Assembly (NCBI RefSeq): GCF_055900595.2
Contig: NZ_CM148325.1
Strand: one strand, 5' to 3'
Length of the DNA: 64,000 bases
This document shows, piece by piece, positions 448-56,485 of the stretch. The notes beneath the pieces were generated by a model. That model was not told the origin of the DNA and made no database searches. It saw only the letters and a list, made by a program, of their open reading frames with translations. Each line of letters begins with the position of its first letter. Within the stretch, counting starts at the first letter, position 1. The position numbers were made by a program, and so were the translations under genes.

Positions 448-1160
448 GTGCACAGAAAACCCCCAGCTAGGCTGGGGGTTCCGGAAAGCTTTCAGCTTTG
501 AGCCAGTTATTAAAACCCCTTTTGATTTGTTAAAACACCTTGCGGTCTGGCAACTGCAAGTGTCAAACAAGAAATCAAAAGGGGGTCCCAATGGGGGACG
601 AAAAGAGCTTAGCGCACACCCGCTGGAACTGTAAATATCACATAGTTTTTGCGCCGAAATACCGAAGACTGGCGTTTTACGGAGAGAAGCGTAGGGCGAT
701 AGGCAGTATTTTGAGAAAGCTGTGTGAGTGGAAAAGCGTACGGATTCTGGAAGCAGAGTGCTGCGCAGATCATATCCATATGCTTGTGGAAATCCCACCC
801 AAAATGAGCGTATCCGGCTTTATGGGATATCTGAAAGGGAAAAGCAGTCTGATGCTTTACGAGCAGTTTGGGGATTTGAAATTCAAATACAGAAACAGGG
901 AGTTCTGGTGCCGAGGGTACTATGTCGATACGGTGGGTAAGAACACGGCGAAGATACAGGACTACATAAAGCACCAGCTTGAAGAGGATAAAATGGGGGA
1001 GCAGTTATCGATTCCATATCCGGGCAGCCCGTTTACGGGCCGTAAGTAACGAAGTTGAATGCAAATGTCAGATCGTATGCGCCTGTTAGGGCACGGCTGG
1101 TAACAGAGCCTTACAGGCGCATTTGAAAAACCTCCGGCTATGCCGGAGGATATTTATTTT
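445..1160 (+). mobile_element. IS200 insertion sequence (IS200/IS605 family), ends approximate
   Basis: 152-aa TnpA ORF; perfect left-end hairpin cccccagc-tag-gctggggg at about 460-478; stem-loop around the start codon (RBS sequestration); right-end hairpins at about 1088-1149. Length about 710 bp matches IS200. Exact ends not determinable by eye. Confidence 0.65.
591..1049 (+). CDS. tnpA: IS200 transposase TnpA (Y1 HUH transposase)
   Basis: 152 aa, MGDEKSLAHTRWNCKYHIVF... with the HxH motif (HIHMLVEIPP) and catalytic Tyr region; matches the IS200 TnpA I remember. ORF-track 540..1049 trimmed to the ATG at 591. Confidence 0.9.
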   Translation: MGDEKSLAHTRWNCKYHIVFAPKYRRLAFYGEKRRAIGSILRKLCEWKSVRILEAECCADHIHMLVEIPPKMSVSGFMGYLKGKSSLMLYEQFGDLKFKYRNREFWCRGYYVDTVGKNTAKIQDYIKHQLEEDKMGEQLSIPYPGSPFTGRK

Positions 1161-1173
1161 TGCGGGTGATGAT

Positions 1174-2121
1174 ATGCGTGTGTTACTGGCACCGATGGAG
1201 GGTGTACTCGACTCTCTGGTGCGTGAATTGCTGACCGAAGTTAACGACTACGATCTGTGCATCACCGAGTTTGTCCGCGTGGTGGATCAACTGCTGCCGG
1301 TAAAAGTTTTTCATCGCATTTGCCCGGAGCTACAAAACGCCAGCCGAACGCCATCCGGTACGCTGGTGCGCGTGCAATTGCTGGGGCAGTTCCCACAATG
1401 GCTGGCAGAGAACGCCGCCCGTGCGGTGGAGTTAGGTTCCTGGGGTGTGGATCTTAATTGCGGCTGTCCGTCGAAAACGGTTAACGGTAGCGGCGGCGGG
1501 GCGACACTACTCAAAGATCCTGAACTCATCTACCAGGGTGCAAAAGCGATGCGTGAAGTTGTACCGGCGCATTTGCCCGTCAGTGTGAAAGTGCGTCTGG
1601 GCTGGGACAGCGGTGAGAAGAAATTTGAAATCGCCGATGCGGTTCAACAGGCTGGCGCTACGGAGTTGGTGGTGCATGGGCGGACAAAAGAGCAGGGGTA
1701 CCGCGCGGAGCATATTGACTGGCAGGCGATTGGCGAGATTCGCCAACGGCTGAATATTCCGGTGATTGCCAACGGTGAAATCTGGGACTGGCAGAGCGCG
1801 CAACAGTGTATGGCGATCAGCGGCTGTGACGCGGTGATGATTGGTCGCGGAGCGCTCAATATTCCCAATCTGAGCCGAGTGGTAAAATATAACGAACCGC
1901 GAATGCCGTGGCCGGAGGTGGTTGCTTTGCTACAAAAATATACCCGTCTGGAAAAGCAGGGCGATACTGGGTTATATCACGTTGCGCGGATTAAACAGTG
2001 GTTGAGTTATTTGCGTAAAGAATACGATGAAGCAACGGAATTATTTCAGCATGTTCGGGTGTTGAATAATTCCCTTGATATTGCAAGGGCTATTCAGACC
2101 ATTGATATCGAGAAACTCTAA
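1174..2121 (+). CDS. dusC: tRNA-dihydrouridine(16) synthase DusC
   Basis: 315 aa from [13 protein letters not shown]..., TIM-barrel Dus family; ORF-track start trimmed from 1123 to the conserved N-terminus. Confidence 0.9.
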
Positions 2122-2185
2122 GAAACCATAGTGATGTTTTTTGACAATGTGTTAGCTCTTTATCAATAGGCCGCACGGTTGTTTG

Positions 2186-2374
2186 GTGGCGTCAAAATCG
2201 CCGAGGCGTTCCCTGAAGGCCGGGGCAGCCCATATGGATGTGGGCTGAGGGCGCGTTTTACAGGGATGTTACCTCGCGCCCGACCCGGTAGCCGTAAGGG
2301 ATAAGCCGAGGGCACCGCGCAGCGGCGATTTTGTTCGCCAGAGCCCGGGGGTGCAGGGGGCGGCGGCGACTGGT
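2186..2374. repeat. GC-rich multi-hairpin intergenic element with terminal inverted repeats (unclassified)
   Basis: Ends ggcgtcaaaatcgccg (about 2187) and cggcgattttgttcgcc (about 2324) are near-perfect inverted repeats; internal perfect hairpins cagccca/tgggctg and gggcgcg/cgcgccc; additional hairpin gggggcg...cgccccc at about 2356-2384. No ORF. Confidence 0.3.
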
Positions 2375-2493
2375 CGCCCCCTGCGCGCTCCTTGCGCTAG
2401 TGATTATATGAAGCAATGCACATGACAGGAGCGCAACAGGATGAGAGACTGAAATATTCTCGTTATTTTCGGATCTGATGACGTTAATTAATT

Positions 2494-2577
2494 TTAAAAT
2501 ATCATCTTAAATACGCCAGTCACCACCAGTAGTCCAATCAGGAAAATAATCAATACAGCCCAGAGTATAATTTTCAT
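2494..2577 (-). CDS. yohP: Small membrane protein YohP (27 aa)
   Basis: Minus-strand ORF MKIILWAVLIIFLIGLLVVTGVFKMIF with an AAGGA RBS about 8 nt upstream; matches the K-12 small protein as I remember it. Below the ORF-track size cutoff. Confidence 0.6.
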   Translation of the reverse strand: MKIILWAVLIIFLIGLLVVTGVFKMIF

Positions 2578-2800
2578 TGGCGTTCCTTTATTTGTGAGTG
2601 TCGAATAAGTATAGGAAAAAACGAAGCCCTTTGCCGTTACTCATAAGTGATTAAGATAAATCGGAGAATATCATTCACTTACTGTATATTTTTCTGAATA
2701 TGTCGTTTTATTGCCACTGATGTATTGCCACGCGAAACTAAAAAATATATTGCATCACACGGTAATCTCCGCGCACCTTTTCTTACCTGACTATTCCTCC

Positions 2801-4237
2801 ATGAATCGTGATTCCTTTTACCCAGCCATCGCCTGTTTTCCTCTGTTACTGATGCTGGCCGGGTGTGCGCCTATGCATGAAACCCGCCAGGCGTTAAGCC
2901 AGCAAACACCCGCTGCGCAAGTTGACACCGCATTACCTACGGCGCTGAAAAATGGTTGGCCAGACAGCCAATGGTGGCTGGAGTATCACGATAATCAACT
3001 CACTTCATTAATTAACTATGCACTGCAGAACGCACCGGATATGCAGGTGGCTGAACAGCGCATTCAGCTGGCTGAAGCCCAGGCGAAGGCAGTTGCCACT
3101 CAGGATGGCCCTCAGATCGATTTTTCTGCGGATATGGAGCGGCAAAAAATGTCGGCAGAAGGGCTAATGGGGCCGTTTGCTCTGAACGATCCTGCCGCAG
3201 GTACGACCGGTCCGTGGTACACCAACGGTACTTTTGGCTTAACGGCGGGCTGGCATCTCGATATCTGGGGAAAGAATCGGGCGGAGGTAACTGCTCGCCT
3301 GGGTACGGTTAAAGCACGAGCGGCGGAACGCGAGCAAACCCGCCAATTGCTGGCTGGCAGCGTTGCCCGCCTTTACTGGGAGTGGCAAACCCAGGCAGCG
3401 TTAAACACTGTTTTGCAGCAAATCGAAAAAGAGCAGAACACCATTATCGCGACCGATCGCCAGCTATATCAGAACGGGATTACTTCTTCAGTTGAAGGTG
3501 TGGAAACCGATATTAATGCCAGCAAGACCCGGCAGCAGCTCAACGATGTCGTGGGAAAAATGAAAATTATTGAGGCACGGTTAAGCGCACTTACAAATCA
3601 CCAGATAAAGTCATTGAAGCTTAAACCGGTTGAGTTGCCGAAAGTGGCAAGTCAGCTTCCTGATGAACTGGGGTATTCATTGCTGGCACGGCGGGCAGAT
3701 TTGCAGGCAGCGCATTGGTACGTTGAGTCATCGTTAAGCACCATTGATGCGGCAAAAGCGGCATTTTACCCTGACATCAACCTGATGGCCTTCCTGCAAC
3801 AGGATGCGTTGCACTTAAGCGATTTGTTCCGTCATTCCGCGCAGCAAATGGGCGTTACGGCAGGCCTGACGCTACCCATTTTCGATAGTGGTCGTCTTAA
3901 CGCCAACCTCGATATTGCAAAAGCCGAAAGCAACTTGTCTATCGCCAGCTACAACAAAGCGGTGGTTGAAGCGGTGAATGACGTGGCGCGGGCAGCCAGT
4001 CAGGTTCAGACGCTGGTGGAGAAAAACCAGCATCAGGCGCAAATTGAGCGCGATGCCTTGCGTGTGGTAGGTCTTGCGCAGGCCCGCTTTAACGCGGGTA
4101 TCATTGCTGGTTCCCGCGTCAGCGAAGCCAGGATCCCGGCGCTGCGTGAGCGGGCCAATGGCCTGTTATTGCAAGGGCAGTGGCTGGATGCCTCCATTCA
4201 ACTCACTGGTGCGTTGGGCGGGGGGTACAAACGCTGA
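2801..4237 (+). CDS. mdtQ: Outer-membrane efflux lipoprotein (NodT/OMF family), intact
   Basis: 478 aa from MNRDSFYPAIACFPLLLMLAGCAP (lipobox LAGC); ORF-track start 2711 is an upstream TTG extension. K-12 mdtQ (yohG) is a pseudogene by my recollection; here the frame is open. Confidence 0.8.
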   Translation: MNRDSFYPAIACFPLLLMLAGCAPMHETRQALSQQTPAAQVDTALPTALKNGWPDSQWWLEYHDNQLTSLINYALQNAPDMQVAEQRIQLAEAQAKAVATQDGPQIDFSADMERQKMSAEGLMGPFALNDPAAGTTGPWYTNGTFGLTAGWHLDIWGKNRAEVTARLGTVKARAAEREQTRQLLAGSVARLYWEWQTQAALNTVLQQIEKEQNTIIATDRQLYQNGITSSVEGVETDINASKTRQQLNDVVGKMKIIEARLSALTNHQIKSLKLKPVELPKVASQLPDELGYSLLARRADLQAAHWYVESSLSTIDAAKAAFYPDINLMAFLQQDALHLSDLFRHSAQQMGVTAGLTLPIFDSGRLNANLDIAKAESNLSIASYNKAVVEAVNDVARAASQVQTLVEKNQHQAQIERDALRVVGLAQARFNAGIIAGSRVSEARIPALRERANGLLLQGQWLDASIQLTGALGGGYKR

Positions 4238-4289
4238 TGATATACGCCTTCTATACTTAACGTTTATTCAGCGTTAAGTGGAGAACTCG

Positions 4290-5051
4290 ATGGTACAGGT
4301 CGCGATTATTACCGCTTCCGATTCGGGGATCGGCAAAGAGTGCGCGTTATTACTGGCGCAGCAGGGTTTTGATATTGGTATTACCTGGCACTCAGATGAA
4401 GAAGGGGCAAAAGATACCGCGCGTGAGGTGGTTAGCCACGGCGTACGTGCGGAGATGGTGCAGCTCGATCTCGGTAAACTGCCAGAGGGGGCACTGGCGC
4501 TGGAGAAACTTATTCAACGGCTGGGGCGCATCGATGTACTCGTGAATAATGCGGGCACAATGACCAAAGCGCCGTTTCTTGATATGGCTTTCGATGAGTG
4601 GCGCAAGATTTTTACCGTTGATGTTGATGGTGCATTTTTATGCTCGCAAATTGCGGCCCGCCAGATGGTGAAACAAGGGCAGGGCGGTCGCATCATCAAC
4701 ATTACGTCGGTACATGAGCATACGCCGCTGCCGGATGCCAGCGCCTATACAGCTGCTAAACATGCACTCGGTGGGCTAACCAAAGCGATGGCGCTTGAGC
4801 TGGTCAGGTATAAGATTTTGGTGAATGCAGTCGCGCCTGGGGCTATCGCCACACCAATGAATGGCATGGATGACGGCGACGTGAAGCCCGACGCGGAGCC
4901 TTCGATTCCCCTGCGGCGTTTCGGCGCAACGCATGAGATTGCCAGCCTGGTGGCGTGGTTATGCTCTGAAGGCGCAAATTACACCACCGGGCAGTCGTTA
5001 ATTGTCGATGGTGGCTTTATGCTGGCGAATCCGCAGTTCAACCCAGAATAG
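4290..5051 (+). CDS. yohF: Short-chain dehydrogenase/reductase YohF
   Basis: 253 aa; TASDSGIGKE cofactor-binding motif and YxxxK active-site motif (YTAAKHAL). Confidence 0.85.
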   Translation: MVQVAIITASDSGIGKECALLLAQQGFDIGITWHSDEEGAKDTAREVVSHGVRAEMVQLDLGKLPEGALALEKLIQRLGRIDVLVNNAGTMTKAPFLDMAFDEWRKIFTVDVDGAFLCSQIAARQMVKQGQGGRIINITSVHEHTPLPDASAYTAAKHALGGLTKAMALELVRYKILVNAVAPGAIATPMNGMDDGDVKPDAEPSIPLRRFGATHEIASLVAWLCSEGANYTTGQSLIVDGGFMLANPQFNPE

Positions 5052-5094
5052 CACAGTGAGGTGCGTGGTTATTTCAATGGGTAATATTTGGTAG

Positions 5095-5180
5095 GCATGA
5101 TAAGACGTGCAAGCGTCGCATCAGGCATGGTGCGACGGATGTCGGATGCGGCGCAAACCGCCTTATCCGAGGCAATGGTT
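5095..5180. repeat. REP (palindromic unit) sequences between convergent yohF and yohD
   Basis: GCGTCGCATCAGGC / GCCTTATCCG-type REP motifs. Confidence 0.5.
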
Positions 5181-5759
5181 TTACGCCTGATCATCCGGCT
5201 TTTTCTTCCCGCGCCGTTTCAGCCACCAGCGCACGCCAACCACCAGAACCACGACCAGAATCAACCAGACCCAGTGCTTCAAATGCTGGTCGAGATTGTG
5301 CAACCACGGCGCAATCACCTGACCACCAGCATAACCGATAGTGGTAAAAATCAACGCCCAGGCAAATGCGCCGAGAATATTCAGCGGCAGAAAGATTTTC
5401 GGCGGCAGCTGGCTGGCACCAATCAGCGTCGGGCCAATGACCCGAAAGCCATACATAAAACGCGTACCAATGACAAACAGATACGGATGGCGCTGGATAA
5501 GTTTCTGCGCCCGCTCAATTTTATCCTGATGTTTCGAGAAACGGCGTAATAGCTTGCCGCCAAAGCGCCGCCCGCACAGATAAAGCACCTGGTCGCCAAT
5601 CATGCCGCCAAGCGCCACAGAAAGTACCACCAGCGGGAACTTTAATAACCCCTGATGTGCCGCAACGCCTCCCAGCAACGTCACGGTTTCACCTTCCGCC
5701 AGACTTCCGAGCACCAGCGCAGCATAACCATATTGTGAGATGAGTGTATTGAGATCCAT
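5181..5759 (-). CDS. yohD: DedA-family inner membrane protein YohD
   Basis: 192 aa from MDLNTLISQYGYAALVLG...; ORF-track start trimmed. Confidence 0.85.
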   Translation of the reverse strand: MDLNTLISQYGYAALVLGSLAEGETVTLLGGVAAHQGLLKFPLVVLSVALGGMIGDQVLYLCGRRFGGKLLRRFSKHQDKIERAQKLIQRHPYLFVIGTRFMYGFRVIGPTLIGASQLPPKIFLPLNILGAFAWALIFTTIGYAGGQVIAPWLHNLDQHLKHWVWLILVVVLVVGVRWWLKRRGKKKPDDQA

Positions 5760-51743: not shown

Positions 51744-52225
51744 AATCGTATGCCTTTATGATTGGTCTGTAGATAGTGTAGAGCAGAAAAGAAAAGGCGG
51801 AGTCAGAACAGGATGAAAATCGGAGGATAAAAAATCAGTTCAAGGATGGGGAATTCAGTGGTTACCAGTAAGGGGGGCAACGGTACACTCGGTTTTTATC
51901 GGCATAAATGATCACTGAAAGCACTTAAGCATTATTTTACTGTGGATTCAGCGTGGCAGCGAACATTAACGGTAGTCAGGGACAAACTTCAAAAGAGCAT
52001 ATGCATCATATTCAACAAAGCAATGGCATCCTCAATGTACGATTCCAATTATATTAAATAATTCCTATGAGGTTATCTGTGATAGGCCTCCATGTCTGTA
52101 TTTCCTACTTATGTAGGAAATTCTGCACAAAACATTTATTATAATCCTATTCAATAATGACAATGATGTCATTATTATATTTCAACACTAGAGAGTGTCG
52201 TTGGTGTTTAATGGGGGAAGGTGAG

Positions 52226-52543
52226 ATGAAAAAGACAGCTGCTATATCATTAATTAGTGTTTTTCTTATGTCTGGTTGTGCTGTGCATAATGATGAGACA
52301 AGTATCGGTAAATTCGGTCTTGCCTATAAAAGTAATATCCAGCGTAAACTCGATAACCAATACTACACTGAAGCCGAAGCATCTTTAGCCAGGGGCAGAA
52401 TATCTGGTGCGGAAAATATAGTGAAAAATGATGCAGCTAATTTCTGTGTTACTCAGGGCAAAAAAATGCAGATAGTTAACCTGAAGACTGAAGGGGCAGG
52501 ATTACATGGCGTCGCGCGTCTGACATTCAAATGTGGAGAGTGA
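52226..52543 (+). CDS. yegR: Lipoprotein YegR
   Basis: 105 aa from MKKTAAISLISVFLMSGCAV (lipobox); GGAAGGTGAG RBS; ORF-track start 52157 is an extension. Confidence 0.8.
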   Translation: MKKTAAISLISVFLMSGCAVHNDETSIGKFGLAYKSNIQRKLDNQYYTEAEASLARGRISGAENIVKNDAANFCVTQGKKMQIVNLKTEGAGLHGVARLTFKCGE

Positions 52544-52891
52544 GAATAGATTCAAGACTACCATGGACACATCCATTTTTATCTCTGATAAGGTATTCTT
52601 CAACACCATTATTGAATGTGAGTAATAATGACAAGCAGATAGATGAAACTACAGCAGAATTTTTATTTTATGCGGCTATCAGAAAATGATGGCATAAATA
52701 TTCCTATGCTTTAGCTTCATTTTTTGTAAGCGTCAAACATGCGCGTTCTGGCTGTGCGTAGCCGGACCCTGTGCGAGCACGATGCCGTTAAGTGAAAGGC
52801 ATCGTGCTATGAAGGGGAATTCTATCGATATGGTCAATGGAAGGAGGTAACCAGGTATGAATCCTTCCTTCTGTTTCATTGAATTACGCAT

Positions 52892-52978
52892 AAAAAATAA
52901 GCCCGTGTAAGGGAGATTACACAGGCTAAGGAGGTGGTTCCTGGTACAGCTAGCATTTTATGGGTTATGTTTTTCAGC
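52892..52978 (-). ncRNA. cyaR: CyaR (RyeE) Hfq-dependent sRNA
   Basis: Minus-strand sequence GCTGAAAAACATAACCCATAAAATGCTAGCTGTACCAGGAACCACCTCCTTAGCCTGTGTAATCTCCCTTACACGGGCTTATTTTTT matches CyaR as I remember it, including the terminator hairpin and U-tail; located just downstream of yegQ as in K-12. Confidence 0.85.
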
Positions 52979-53062
52979 GGAACGGATGATAACCTTAATA
53001 ACTGCAGCTGTATGTGATCGGTTTCTAAGAATTTTCCATCCGGGAAAAATAATCGAAATTAA

Positions 53063-54424
53063 TCACTTACCGTGGGGGTTACGCGTGGTTTCCCCGGAGA
53101 AATTACGCATCAGCAGCGCGTAATTTAGCTCAAGATCCTGCGGGACCGGGATCCACACAGTATAACCATCGCCCGGTGCGACCGGCATTGCTTCGCCTTT
53201 GGCGTTTTCCATATGCTCAAGGGTAAAGTTAATGTTCCCTTGCGGCGTCATCAGCTCAAGGCTGTCGCCAACGGAGAATTTATTTTTCACCGCTACCGCC
53301 GCGAGGTCGCCCTTGCGCTCACCGGTAAACTCACCAACAAACTGCTGGCGGTCAGAAACTGAATAACCGTATTCGTAGTTCTGATAATCGTCGTGAGTAT
53401 GACGACGCAGGAAACCTTCGGTATAGCCACGATGCGCCAGACCTTCCAGAGTTTCCAGCAGGCTGGTATCGAATGGTTTTCCCGCAGCTGCGTCATCGAT
53501 AGCTTTACGGTAAACCTGCGCGGTGCGTGCGCAATAGTAGAAAGATTTTGTACGACCTTCGATTTTCAGCGAATGCACGCCCATTTTGGTCAGGCGTTCA
53601 ACGTGGGCAATGGCGCGCAAATCTTTTGAGTTCATGATGTAAGTGCCGTGCTCATCTTCAAACGCGGTCATATACTCGCCCGGACGCTGGGCTTCTTCGA
53701 TCATAAACACTTTGTCGGTTGGCGCGCCGATACCCAGCGTCGGCTCAACGTTTTGCACCGGAATTGGTTCGTACTTGTGAACGATGTTGCCAACGTCATC
53801 TTCTTTACCTTCCTGGACGTTGTACTCCCAGCGGCAGGCGTTGGTGCAGGTGCCCTGGTTCGGGTCGCGCTTGTTGATATAGCCAGAGAGCAGGCAGCGA
53901 CCGGAGTAGGCCATGCACAGCGCGCCGTGAACGAAGATCTCTACCTCCATATCCGGCACCTGATTGCGGATCTCTTCAATCTCTTCCAGCGACAGCTCGC
54001 GAGAGAGGATCACACGGGTCAGGCCCATTTGCTGCCAGAATTTCACCGTCGCCCAGTTCACGGCGTTAGCCTGTACCGAGAGATGGATCGGCATTTCAGG
54101 GAAGTGCTCACGCACCAGCATAATCAGCCCTGGATCGGACATAATCAGCGCATCCGGCCCCATTTCCACCACCGGTTTCAGGTCACGGATAAAGGTTTTC
54201 AACTTAGCGTTGTGCGGTGCAATGTTGACCACAACATAAAACTTTTTCCCCAGCGCGTGGGCTTCATTAATGCCGAGCTGGAGATTTTCGTGGTTGAATT
54301 CGTTGTTGCGCACACGCAGGGAGTAACGCGGCTGGCCCGCATAAACAGCATCTGCGCCATAAGCGAAAGCGTAACGCATATTTTTCAGCGTTCCCGCCGG
54401 GGAAAGGAGTTCCGGTTTAAACAT
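53063..54424 (-). CDS. yegQ: Peptidase U32-family protein YegQ (TrhP, tRNA ho5U34 hydroxylation)
   Basis: 453 aa, same length as K-12 YegQ; U32 family. Confidence 0.9.
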   Translation of the reverse strand: MFKPELLSPAGTLKNMRYAFAYGADAVYAGQPRYSLRVRNNEFNHENLQLGINEAHALGKKFYVVVNIAPHNAKLKTFIRDLKPVVEMGPDALIMSDPGLIMLVREHFPEMPIHLSVQANAVNWATVKFWQQMGLTRVILSRELSLEEIEEIRNQVPDMEVEIFVHGALCMAYSGRCLLSGYINKRDPNQGTCTNACRWEYNVQEGKEDDVGNIVHKYEPIPVQNVEPTLGIGAPTDKVFMIEEAQRPGEYMTAFEDEHGTYIMNSKDLRAIAHVERLTKMGVHSLKIEGRTKSFYYCARTAQVYRKAIDDAAAGKPFDTSLLETLEGLAHRGYTEGFLRRHTHDDYQNYEYGYSVSDRQQFVGEFTGERKGDLAAVAVKNKFSVGDSLELMTPQGNINFTLEHMENAKGEAMPVAPGDGYTVWIPVPQDLELNYALLMRNFSGETTRNPHGK

Positions 54425-54629
54425 AATTCTCTCGTTCTGATGACAGGTCAGATCCGCTTCACCTGATGAAGCGGTTAGGGGAGTGCCCCCACTTTAAGGG
54501 CGGGCATTGTAGCGCAATCGGTGGGGTTGACTCCAGTGACAATGTTAAGGGAAAGACTGAGCGCATTTATTTCGTTTTGATTCCGATAGTCGTCAGGTTC
54601 AATTGTTATCAGTTGACCTTAATTTGGTG

Positions 54630-56030
54630 TTAAAGAAAGGGAATATAACCCCATAACTTGTTGTGAAGTTCCGGATTGCAGGTAAAAAGCGCCTGAAGTT
54701 GCTGACGCTGAGGAGCATTTGGTTGAATGTCCGAAAGATTGAAATTGCGTTGCCATATCGCGAGCTGTTTACCTGCAAATTCTTCAGTTAGCTTGTGTTG
54801 CGATTGCAGAAGAAGAATTAAACAGGCCCATTTGTTCAAGTTATGATACAGCCGACAATATGCGCAAGCATGTTTAACTGATGGTGCGTTTTCCAGCAAC
54901 TGACGTATTTCCTCGAACGTGAGCGGAACTCGACACCATACACAGATGTTAACCATAAATCGAAGCCCGGAGGCGTCCGGGTTAGCCAGTGTGGTCAGAA
55001 TAATCCCTTTGACACCACCATCAGGATTGGCTTTCGCAAGAATATACATAGCGGCTAATCGCAGTGGGAATACATCCTGTGATAATCCCCATTCTGCCAG
55101 TTTTAAAATATTGGCATCATGAATGGAGTCCAGCCCGTATAAAGCTGCCCGGCGCTGTGAGGGAGTATATTCAGTCGAGGTGACAACATGACGCCAGAAT
55201 TGCACAACATCCATGACGTCATTAAGCATGTTTTTAGCGCGTAGACGGATCAACATATTGTTATCCAGCAGTAATGCGCTGTACAACGCCGGAGGAATTT
55301 CTATAGCTCGGTCAGTAAGGCTAAACAACGTTGCTTGTCGAATACGCGGCCAGCGGTCTTTTAACAGACGAGTTAATACCGCTTCGCTTAACGGTAATTG
55401 TTGACGCAGCCAGTGGGTGACCGCCAGCATTCGTAAACCTTCGTCGGGCTGCTTGAGTATTAAAAGCAGCGAAGATTCATCATTAAAGTAGCCATATTCA
55501 ATCAGCGTTTGTAATACTGCGCGGGAGAGTTTTTTATCAGGGCAAGTAAGCCAACACGTTAATTGTGGACGGCTATTTTCTGTCAATAAAAATCTAAGTA
55601 TCTCGTCTACAAATGCACGGTGATCGTAACGCTGGCATTGGAGAAGGTTACGTATCAAGGGAAGATTAACGGCAAATGCCGCTGCATTCTTATCCTTCTT
55701 TAAATGACGTAACGCTATGGTTGCAGCAAGGCGAACCTCTTTTACCCAGTCATTAGCTGCAAGTAATAATTCTTCTATAGCTGCAACATCCTCTTTTTGT
55801 CCCAGACATTGCACGGCCTTTTCTCGTATATATCCATTGTGGTGATGGGTAAGCTGGCAAAGAACCAGAGTATCGTTGAGATCACAATCATGCGCTATAT
55901 AATTGCCTGGATCGGCTATCATCGACTGGAGTTGTTGCTGGATAAGAAATAATTCACAGTCAACAGAATTATTCATTTCGACGTTAAACAAAACCCTGCG
56001 TGTAAATAATGTACGCAATCCTTTGAGCAT
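54630..56030 (-). CDS. HEAT-repeat protein of unknown function (466 aa), likely accessory
   Basis: Uninterrupted 1401-nt ORF with an AAGGA RBS; at least three PBS-lyase/HEAT-like repeat pairs; Cys-rich segment CVWCRVPLTFEEIRQLLENAPSVKHACAYCRLY; by-eye GC content below the flanking genes. Confidence 0.75.
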   Translation of the reverse strand: MLKGLRTLFTRRVLFNVEMNNSVDCELFLIQQQLQSMIADPGNYIAHDCDLNDTLVLCQLTHHHNGYIREKAVQCLGQKEDVAAIEELLLAANDWVKEVRLAATIALRHLKKDKNAAAFAVNLPLIRNLLQCQRYDHRAFVDEILRFLLTENSRPQLTCWLTCPDKKLSRAVLQTLIEYGYFNDESSLLLILKQPDEGLRMLAVTHWLRQQLPLSEAVLTRLLKDRWPRIRQATLFSLTDRAIEIPPALYSALLLDNNMLIRLRAKNMLNDVMDVVQFWRHVVTSTEYTPSQRRAALYGLDSIHDANILKLAEWGLSQDVFPLRLAAMYILAKANPDGGVKGIILTTLANPDASGLRFMVNICVWCRVPLTFEEIRQLLENAPSVKHACAYCRLYHNLNKWACLILLLQSQHKLTEEFAGKQLAIWQRNFNLSDIQPNAPQRQQLQALFTCNPELHNKLWGYIPFL

Positions 56031-56110
56031 AATTTTCCTTATCAGTTATGAGGAGAAAACTCATTTCATGATTAATAATTTCCTGAGGGATAGTAACTCT
56101 GTGATGAGAG

Positions 56111-56145
56111 AAAATAAAGCCGGACGCCAACAACCTACGCCCGGC
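56111..56145 (-). terminator. Rho-independent terminator of yegP
   Basis: Minus-strand hairpin gccgggcg...gcgtccggc followed by TTTATTTT, immediately after the yegP stop. Confidence 0.55.
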
Positions 56146-56152
56146 ATCGTAA

Positions 56153-56485
56153 TTACGTATTGTCTTTCACCGTCTGGCTTGTGCCATTGGCTTTAACGGA
56201 GGCAATTCCGGTTTCACGAGATTGCGCGGTGGCGTACATCTGGCTGGAGCCGATAATTTGATGATTGGCGGCTTTCAGATTGAAATAGAATTTGCCGTTG
56301 CTTGCTGTTTTTTTCTCATAGCGTTCTTCTTGTGGGCTGTTGCTACGCACTGACGCGATGCCCTTTTCCGCAGAGGCTTTTGAGGTATACAGCTCGCTGG
56401 TGAGGATAGTCTCACCATTGCCCGCTTTTAGCACAAACCGGAATTGATTATCACTGCTCCTACTGAGTTCAAACCAACCAGCCAT
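56153..56485 (-). CDS. yegP: UPF0339/DUF1508 tandem-domain protein YegP
   Basis: 110 aa from MAGWFELSRSSDNQFRFVLKAGNGETILTSELY...; internal tandem repeat of the DUF1508 unit; ORF-track start trimmed. Confidence 0.88.
   Translation of the reverse strand: MAGWFELSRSSDNQFRFVLKAGNGETILTSELYTSKASAEKGIASVRSNSPQEERYEKKTASNGKFYFNLKAANHQIIGSSQMYATAQSRETGIASVKANGTSQTVKDNT

Follow-up and report, generated by a model that had tools for sequence, protein, structure and literature searches.

A HEAT-repeat protein gene inserted between yegP and yegQ in Escherichia coli belongs to an uncharacterised family that recurs beside RNA-repair genes

Introduction

The RNA-repair genes rtcBA are present in K-12 and in most E. 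coli chromosomes, and RNA-repair systems reportedly follow a general "syntax" that includes scaffold components, a scheme which Burroughs and Aravind are said to have set out in 2016. Here we analyse a 64,000-nucleotide stretch of E. coli DNA (contig NZ_CM148325.1 of RefSeq assembly GCF_055900595.2; hereafter the window), which carries a gene for a 466-amino acid HEAT-repeat protein between yegP and yegQ (trhP), and compare the gene, its relatives and their neighbours with the known repair components.

The closest described parallels are two proteins of RtcB operons. Ro (Ro60/Rsr, of the TROVE type), a known RtcB-operon partner encoded in rsr-yrlBA-rtcBA operons, is a HEAT-repeat ring that binds damaged or misfolded RNA (PMC3854526). 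Members of the family described here resemble Ro in being predicted non-enzymatic proteins of HEAT-type helical repeats encoded in RtcR/RtcB operons, where their position is analogous and accessory; the window protein is not itself a Ro60/TROVE member, a TROVE ring with a vWA domain being absent from it. RlaP (PF10127), an RNA-ligase-associated Pol-beta nucleotidyltransferase, extends damaged RNA 3′ ends by one or two nucleotides and is required to restore tRNA function (PMC12776372). It occupies the same operon positions as the HEAT gene, between rtcB and rtcA or after rtcB, often directly adjoins it and, like it, was found through guilt by association. RlaP is an enzyme whose 3′-nucleotide addition has been demonstrated (PMC12776372), whereas the HEAT protein lacks any catalytic fold.

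In the literature covered, which did not include Burroughs and Aravind 2016, we found nothing on the gene, on the yegP-yegQ site or, Ro apart, on a HEAT protein partnered with RtcB, and neither the RlaP preprint (PMC12776372) nor Hughes et al. 2020 mentions a HEAT partner. The gene is catalogued but uncharacterised, and we assign it to no characterised family; the family-level link to RNA repair is new.

Results

The protein and its family

The gene lies in the window as follows.

54630..56030, minus strand, gene for the 466-amino acid HEAT-repeat protein; intact, uninterrupted open reading frame with an ATG start

Its product is NCBI WP_045145364.1, annotated "HEAT repeat domain-containing protein", and the surrounding 1.8-kb region is 100% identical to that of E. 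coli M160133, a urine isolate in which the open reading frame is annotated as a coding sequence. Pfam recognised HEAT_2 alone (E = 8e-5, residues 57-108), plus weaker repeats, and an AlphaFold2 model based on a 77-sequence alignment (pLDDT 93.8) has 29 helices arranged as an all-alpha solenoid with no further domain. Tandem repeats by profile and the all-alpha superhelical fold place the protein among the HEAT/PBS-lyase-type alpha-solenoids, and we are confident in the predicted structure as an all-helical HEAT solenoid without a catalytic domain, in keeping with an initial annotation that had read HEAT repeats and no catalytic motif from the DNA sequence. The protein has a pI of 8.5 and no hydrophobic segment. 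Domain fusions, sought in three long relatives (P0113, the L137 open reading frame and P0086), yielded HEAT_2 only.

Comparison with characterised proteins gave HEAT generically or nothing. NCBIfam, PHROGs and PADLOC scans returned no specific family, a PDB profile search matched alphaRep and CpcE, and Foldseek against AFDB50 found proteins similar over their full length in Proteobacteria, Firmicutes, Planctomycetes and Bacteroidetes, every one of them named only "HEAT repeat". YibA of E. coli (PDB 1oyz) and other PBS-lyase/alphaRep-type HEAT proteins match just 110-180 residues, through the generic repeat consensus, and lack the NDW, NKW and W..FN.S...P motifs of the family; YibA has 280 residues against 466. 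A reading as an AlkD-like HEAT DNA glycosylase was rejected, there being no match to the DNA_alkylation profile of Pfam together with the AlkD fold, as was one as a deoxyhypusine hydroxylase-type HEAT metalloenzyme, whose four conserved His-Glu metal-binding motifs the protein lacks. A match to BrxF was below threshold and one to fumarate reductase was an artefact. The Cys-rich C-terminal segment described in the initial annotation is present (CVWC...CAYC) but does not mark a conserved metal site, since other residues take the place of C363/C366 and C388/C392 in a 60%-identical homologue (P0014; ILRY and SAYY) and in more distant members.

An exhaustive phmmer search of 1.84e9 representative sequences gave 1681 matches with an E-value below 1e-3, of which 456 were below 1e-10. 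Run against a word-indexed protein collection, the family profile recovered almost only close E. coli relatives. Family members are mostly 430-560 amino acids long and align over residues ~57-450; 68 of the 77 aligned match HEAT_2. The family-invariant residues G66, R69, N93-D94-W95, R100, D256, W401, W426, N431 and P437 (window protein numbering) are all present in the window protein, which scores 435 bits against the family hidden Markov model (HMM) and is a full-length member of this "NDW-motif" family. The family is basic (median pI 9.2, with 88% of members above pI 8), large and uncharacterised, and is annotated just as "HEAT repeat protein".

A second, shorter HEAT family (~340 amino acids), shares the R-x-NDWV-xx-VR-x-AA motif with the first but scores only 40-60 bits against its HMM. 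It is encoded at L124 3618-5502, at L150 9011-11426 and at 60 other metagenome loci among L044-L163, and a few of its members also adjoin RlaP, RtcB or RtcA. A distant HEAT homologue, P0027 (L037 2641-6348), follows genes for a 1235-amino acid DUF4132 protein and a 172-amino acid protein.

Association with RNA-repair genes

In seven Pectobacterium species and in Buttiauxella, the gene is found in the arrangement rtcR<>rtcB-(rlaP)-HEAT, with gaps of 11-40 bp and without rtcA; NCBIfam searches bore out the naming of RtcR and RtcB. Repair neighbours were also found for each of three distant members (about 22-25% identity) picked solely for their long contigs. The first lies in an HTH-RlaP-HEAT operon beside RtcB-PrfH-RNA ligase-HD/kinase, KptA, NADAR, Nudix and Band-7 genes, the second forms an RtcB-HEAT pair whose genes overlap by 4 bp, and the third is followed by RlaP.

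An unbiased DNA-motif scan of metagenomes extended this picture. The family is encoded by 118 of the 120 loci retrieved, and dereplication at 80% identity left 47 strong members. In 10 of these 47 lineages (21%), the retrieved locus also encodes RtcB, RlaP, RtcA, RNA ligase or HD-kinase, and in eight of the ten the repair gene directly adjoins the HEAT gene on the same strand, in orders such as RtcB-HEAT-RtcA and ligase-HDkinase-HEAT-RtcB-RtcA. The 21% is a lower bound because many contigs have less than 1 kb of flanking DNA. RtcB and RlaP are the two commonest recurring neighbour clusters, and RtcA also recurs. In a rough neighbour-joining tree, repair-linked members fall into at least six separate clades, and four of the five members of the sister clade of the Enterobacterales group are linked. 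This scatter suggests that the association is a property of the family rather than the accident of one lineage.

Our preferred explanation, which we hold tentatively and place a little below an even chance, is that the family supplies an accessory (scaffold or cofactor) to RtcB/RlaP/RtcA RNA-repair operons, that this role is ancestral and recurrent, and that the E. coli copy has been orphaned. The function is one that we infer from gene context only. The E. coli gene would then probably be a displaced and in many cases decaying copy of a hitherto undescribed helper of RNA repair.

The yegP-yegQ junction

The minus-strand gene order is baeS-baeR-yegP-HEAT gene-yegQ/trhP, and the elements around the HEAT gene are these.

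56153..56485, minus strand, yegP, core flanking gene upstream; its stop codon is at 56153
56111..56145, minus strand, intrinsic terminator of yegP: an 8-bp GC-rich stem, then TTTATTTT; inner stem at 56131-56119 by terminator scan
56031..56118, minus strand, AT-rich 88-bp leader that arrived with the insert, from junction alignment
56036..56040, minus strand, Shine-Dalgarno sequence AAGGA, 5 nt 5′ of the HEAT gene ATG, read from the sequence
54546..54629, minus strand, non-coding tail of the insert, 3′ of the HEAT gene stop codon
54516..54545, minus strand, right-end boundary of ~30 bp, CACTGGAG..AACCC.CCGATT, from pairwise blastn and junction alignments
54506..54511, minus strand, TACAAT, candidate -10 element for yegQ/trhP transcription, from the sequence and junction alignment
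53063..54424, minus strand, yegQ/trhP, core flanking gene downstream; its start is at 54424

The initial annotation had described a single long open reading frame of 466 codons with its own ribosome-binding site between the yegP terminator and yegQ, and the start codon, Shine-Dalgarno sequence and terminator were all located. Alignment with empty-site E. coli genomes delimits an insert of ~1.6 kb, about 54516-56118, in place of 21 bp. Its left junction directly follows the yegP terminator stem and its right end lies just before TACAAT upstream of yegQ. This hexamer, just outside the insert, is kept in all three alleles of the site (empty, ParDE and HEAT). A sigma-54 GG-N10-GC element is absent from the HEAT gene leader, as inspected by eye.

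Computation bore out the lower GC content that had been noted by eye. The HEAT gene has a GC content of 0.441 and a third-position value (GC3) of 0.407, compared with 0.536/0.628 for yegQ, 0.533/0.598 for baeR and 0.483/0.532 for yegP; yegQ, baeR and baeS range from 0.53 to 0.54 in GC and from 0.58 to 0.63 in GC3, and the whole window has a GC content of 0.499. The composition of the gene is clearly foreign.

Distribution in E. coli

We surveyed 5426 complete E. coli genomes, counting a gene as full-length at ≥80% of its length. A full-length HEAT gene is present in 39 and some trace of it in 96, of which 57 have remnants only; K-12 lacks it, as do more than 98% of E. coli. In 1844 genomes (34%) the spot is taken by a toxin-antitoxin pair, ParDE. 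Most of the others have the short K-12-type junction, which is what the rows sampled from them show, with yegP and yegQ adjacent across a 146-bp spacer; this accords with the K-12 gene order given in the initial annotation, and the same spacer is found in a strain that, to judge by its name, derives from MG1655. The yegP-yegQ spacer is thus a genuine three-state hotspot, being empty or filled by a ParDE or a HEAT cassette.

The ParDE cassette (L002 2549-3453) resembles the HEAT cassette in its insertion point after the yegP terminator, its right boundary and its GC content of 0.44. The two share ~30 bp at the right end (window 54516-54545) and 5 bp at the left end (56114-56118), and the empty allele has neither. 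These common boundaries, missing from the empty allele, suggest that cargo has been swapped inside a common frame. Unlike the HEAT cassette, ParDE is a two-gene type II toxin-antitoxin system of unrelated sequence, and it is ~50 times commoner in E. coli (1844 versus 39).

E. coli HEAT alleles form lineages at ~100%, 97-98%, 95% and 93.4% nucleotide identity. Where the window has a non-coding tail, the 93.4% allele has a 53-amino acid ParD fragment after the HEAT gene. Among Escherichia alleles dN/dS is 0.26-0.29 (dS 0.17-0.29), and it is 0.12-0.14 against the 60% homologue, indicating a real gene under moderate purifying selection and not a spurious open reading frame. The E. coli copy is nevertheless often inactivated and is being lost in many lineages.

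Related loci in other bacteria

Homologues at 85%, 60% and 40% identity occupy the same baeR-to-yegQ position in other Enterobacteriaceae. Upstream of them is a gene for a secreted TPR-like protein of 228-239 amino acids, or the HEAT gene overlaps the baeR stop codon; downstream is a ParD gene (locus L004) or TacA/TacT (locus L006).

A three-gene island comprising a TPR-like gene, the HEAT gene and a convergent gene for a secreted protein is seen in other Escherichia/Enterobacteriaceae and in E. coli 2017-02-2CC. The TPR-like protein has 239 amino acids and a signal peptide, and its gene ends 4-10 bp upstream of the HEAT gene; the convergent gene encodes a secreted protein of 137-201 amino acids. 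NCBIfam and Pfam have no family for either partner, and both partner genes are missing from the window. They were located at:

L005, 9271-9990 and 11429-11842
L165, 1717-2436 and 3245-3850
L011, 5360-5965

In E. coli 2017-02-2CC the island reads TPR protein-HEAT remnant-201-amino acid secreted protein and is 92-93% identical to the L005 island, whereas the L005 flanks are only 87.6% (yegQ) and 80.6% (baeR) identical to E. coli. The island being more alike than its flanks, the cassette has moved laterally among Enterobacteriaceae.

In one Enterobacteriaceae lineage (L006 7001-7004; also L012), the reading frame of the 40%-identical HEAT gene opens 4 bp ahead of the stop codon of baeR, an arrangement that points to co-translation with mdtABCD-baeSR, the operon upstream. 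Downstream of the HEAT gene lies a toxin-antitoxin pair of the acetyltransferase type, TacA/TacT (L006 8598-9343). In Serratia grimesii and S. proteamaculans (L017 and L023, ~476-5683), genes for a giant CdiA-like protein and a presumed immunity protein of 131 amino acids lie ~300 bp upstream of the HEAT gene.

Discussion

The role in RNA repair that we favour would work as follows. The product would be a cytoplasmic, basic, non-enzymatic HEAT-repeat solenoid that binds damaged translation RNA (tRNA, or 16S rRNA/ribosome) or the repair enzymes themselves, so presenting broken RNA ends to the end-healing enzymes RtcA and RlaP and the sealing enzyme RtcB. Its slot in the repair operon would be the one filled elsewhere by Ro/TROVE or Band-7 proteins. 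The orphan E. coli copy would need to act in trans with the chromosomal rtcBA, or alone; alternatively, it may have taken on a different function or be on its way to being lost. The basic pI of the window protein and of the family median is a hint of RNA binding, and the sole indirect one. A further proposal, possible although we doubt it, is that family members are widespread, hitherto unrecognised scaffolds or cofactors, akin in function to Ro/TROVE or to the eEF3 HEAT arm, that dock on the damaged tRNA or ribosome and recruit RtcB, RlaP and RtcA, with the E. coli allele serving as a trans-acting specificity factor that widens RtcBA repair, for example after RNase attack by colicins, contact-dependent inhibition (CDI) or toxin-antitoxin (TA) systems.

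Several observations weigh against a repair role. Neither the E. coli gene nor any of its nearest relatives (≥40% identity) lies beside RNA-repair genes; they sit instead downstream of baeSR. The 64-kb window has no RtcB, RlaP, RtcA, ligase, HD-kinase or PrfH open reading frame, so that the window gene belongs to no repair operon there. Some 80% of metagenome family members have no repair neighbour in the retrieved DNA. Our figure for chance adjacency to RtcB, below 1%, is an estimate that takes a genome to hold one or two copies of rtcB among a few thousand genes, with no computed control. That family members bind RNA or protein is likewise something we infer. As to the E. coli copy, a scan for sigma-70 promoters returned nothing on the minus strand ahead of the HEAT gene, codon K112 has become a stop in 8 of the 39 full-length copies, and some copies are cut by IS1, besides the remnants in the 57 further genomes.

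These lesions bear also on the view that the E. coli copy is a decaying passenger without function, left over from the larger TPR protein-HEAT-secreted protein island. The remnants, the K112 stop, the IS1 insertions and a frameshifted copy in Escherichia sp. MOD1-EC7003 speak for it, as do the lack of a recognisable promoter and the loss of the island's partner genes from the window. The window copy, however, is intact and has a good Shine-Dalgarno sequence, and the dN/dS between E. coli alleles, at the dS values given above, points to purifying selection over a long divergence. We regard a mere passenger as unlikely.

The initial annotation was right about a single-gene, low-GC insertion in a conserved intergenic spot; the immunity, anti-phage or toxin-partner roles that it proposed for the product found no support, as the family has no consistent toxin or defence neighbour and its recurrent partners are RtcB, RlaP and RtcA. 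A link to RNA repair is still a conflict-related theme, namely the repair of damage by RNase toxins. On the immunity view, the protein would be an orphan immunity or antitoxin-like protein neutralising a protein toxin (a CDI, Rhs or colicin RNase, or a TA toxin) encoded elsewhere or lost. The site does host toxin-antitoxin cassettes, in the form of ParDE in 1844 of the 5426 genomes, the ParD fragment of the 93% allele, the ParD gene of L004 and the TacA/TacT pair of L006, and the Serratia homologue lies downstream of a CdiA-like protein with a deaminase-like C-terminus (HAE...CxxC, by motif reading) and its small presumed immunity gene. Yet no toxin gene consistently adjoins the family and none lies beside the window gene; TA pairs at the yegP-yegQ site are complete without the HEAT gene, and other alleles have only the 53-amino acid ParD fragment. 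In Serratia, a gap of 305-327 bp separates the HEAT gene from the toxin module. At 466 amino acids the protein is far above the typical size of immunity proteins, and the length and motifs of the family are strongly conserved across phyla, unlike those of fast-diversifying immunity families. Nor is an immunity gene to be expected inside an operon between rtcB and rtcA, joined to its neighbours by overlaps or by gaps of 3-16 bp. We consider an immunity function improbable.

A role in translation independent of RNA repair, either as the partner of an ABC-F ATPase (a split eEF3-like arrangement) or as a tRNA-binding helper of neighbouring tRNA enzymes, seems distinctly improbable. It would account for one branch of the family (L047 3326-7143, L054, L065, L091 and L100), in which the HEAT gene lies downstream of a gene for an ABC-F "ribosomal protection-like" ATPase (453 bits versus a cut-off of 380) and is coupled to it in translation, and it would suit the basic character of the family and the position of the E. 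coli copy beside trhP, which encodes a tRNA U34 hydroxylase. After dereplication, however, the ABC-F-linked loci are essentially one lineage, while linkage to RtcB/RlaP is far commoner and phylogenetically scattered; the hotspot, whose cargo in other strains is unrelated, accounts for the position beside trhP. eEF3 itself is a fusion of HEAT repeats with ABC-F cassettes, whereas here the genes are separate, the structural likeness is generic and no ABC-F gene adjoins the E. coli copy.

A stand-alone anti-phage defence or sensor protein in a defence hotspot, as a single low-GC, patchy and laterally exchanged gene in a variable spot, the SLFN-like helicase adjoining the Affinibrenneria homologue and a partial PADLOC match to HEAT-ARM_XIII might suggest, is highly improbable, given that the protein has no effector domain, no PHROG match and no DNA-motif match in viral contigs (0 found), that defence genes are not among the recurring neighbours, and that the PADLOC match (E = 1.9e-7, residues 56-251 against positions 582-768) spans 190 residues of a 1972-position model and reflects generic HEAT similarity. 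We take HEAT-ARM_XIII, from its name, to be the partner of a type XIII retron; no reverse transcriptase (RT)-like gene is annotated among the window neighbours, and the window protein was not assigned to that group.

RtcB, RtcA and RlaP systems are widespread, and how they find substrates and what their RNA targets are in vivo is poorly understood. A conserved, non-enzymatic HEAT partner that recurs in their operons across phyla is a concrete candidate for the component, so far missing, that would recognise substrates or serve as a scaffold. The natural E. coli allele is convenient in this respect, as it can be transferred into K-12, which has rtcBA but not the HEAT gene. The three-state hotspot with its common boundaries is useful for pan-genome and hotspot studies. 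Should the RNA-repair link fail for the E. coli copy, the finding shrinks to a rare, decaying accessory gene.

Other features of the window

Two further features lie downstream of yegQ. The small RNA CyaR/RyeE, expected in this region of E. coli, is encoded at 52895-52980 on the minus strand (Rfam, 99.8 bits). A second low-GC stretch (0.355-0.41), at ~51800-52800, is probably the yegR region and contains a 128-codon open reading frame (52157-52543, plus strand) with a lipoprotein-like signal.

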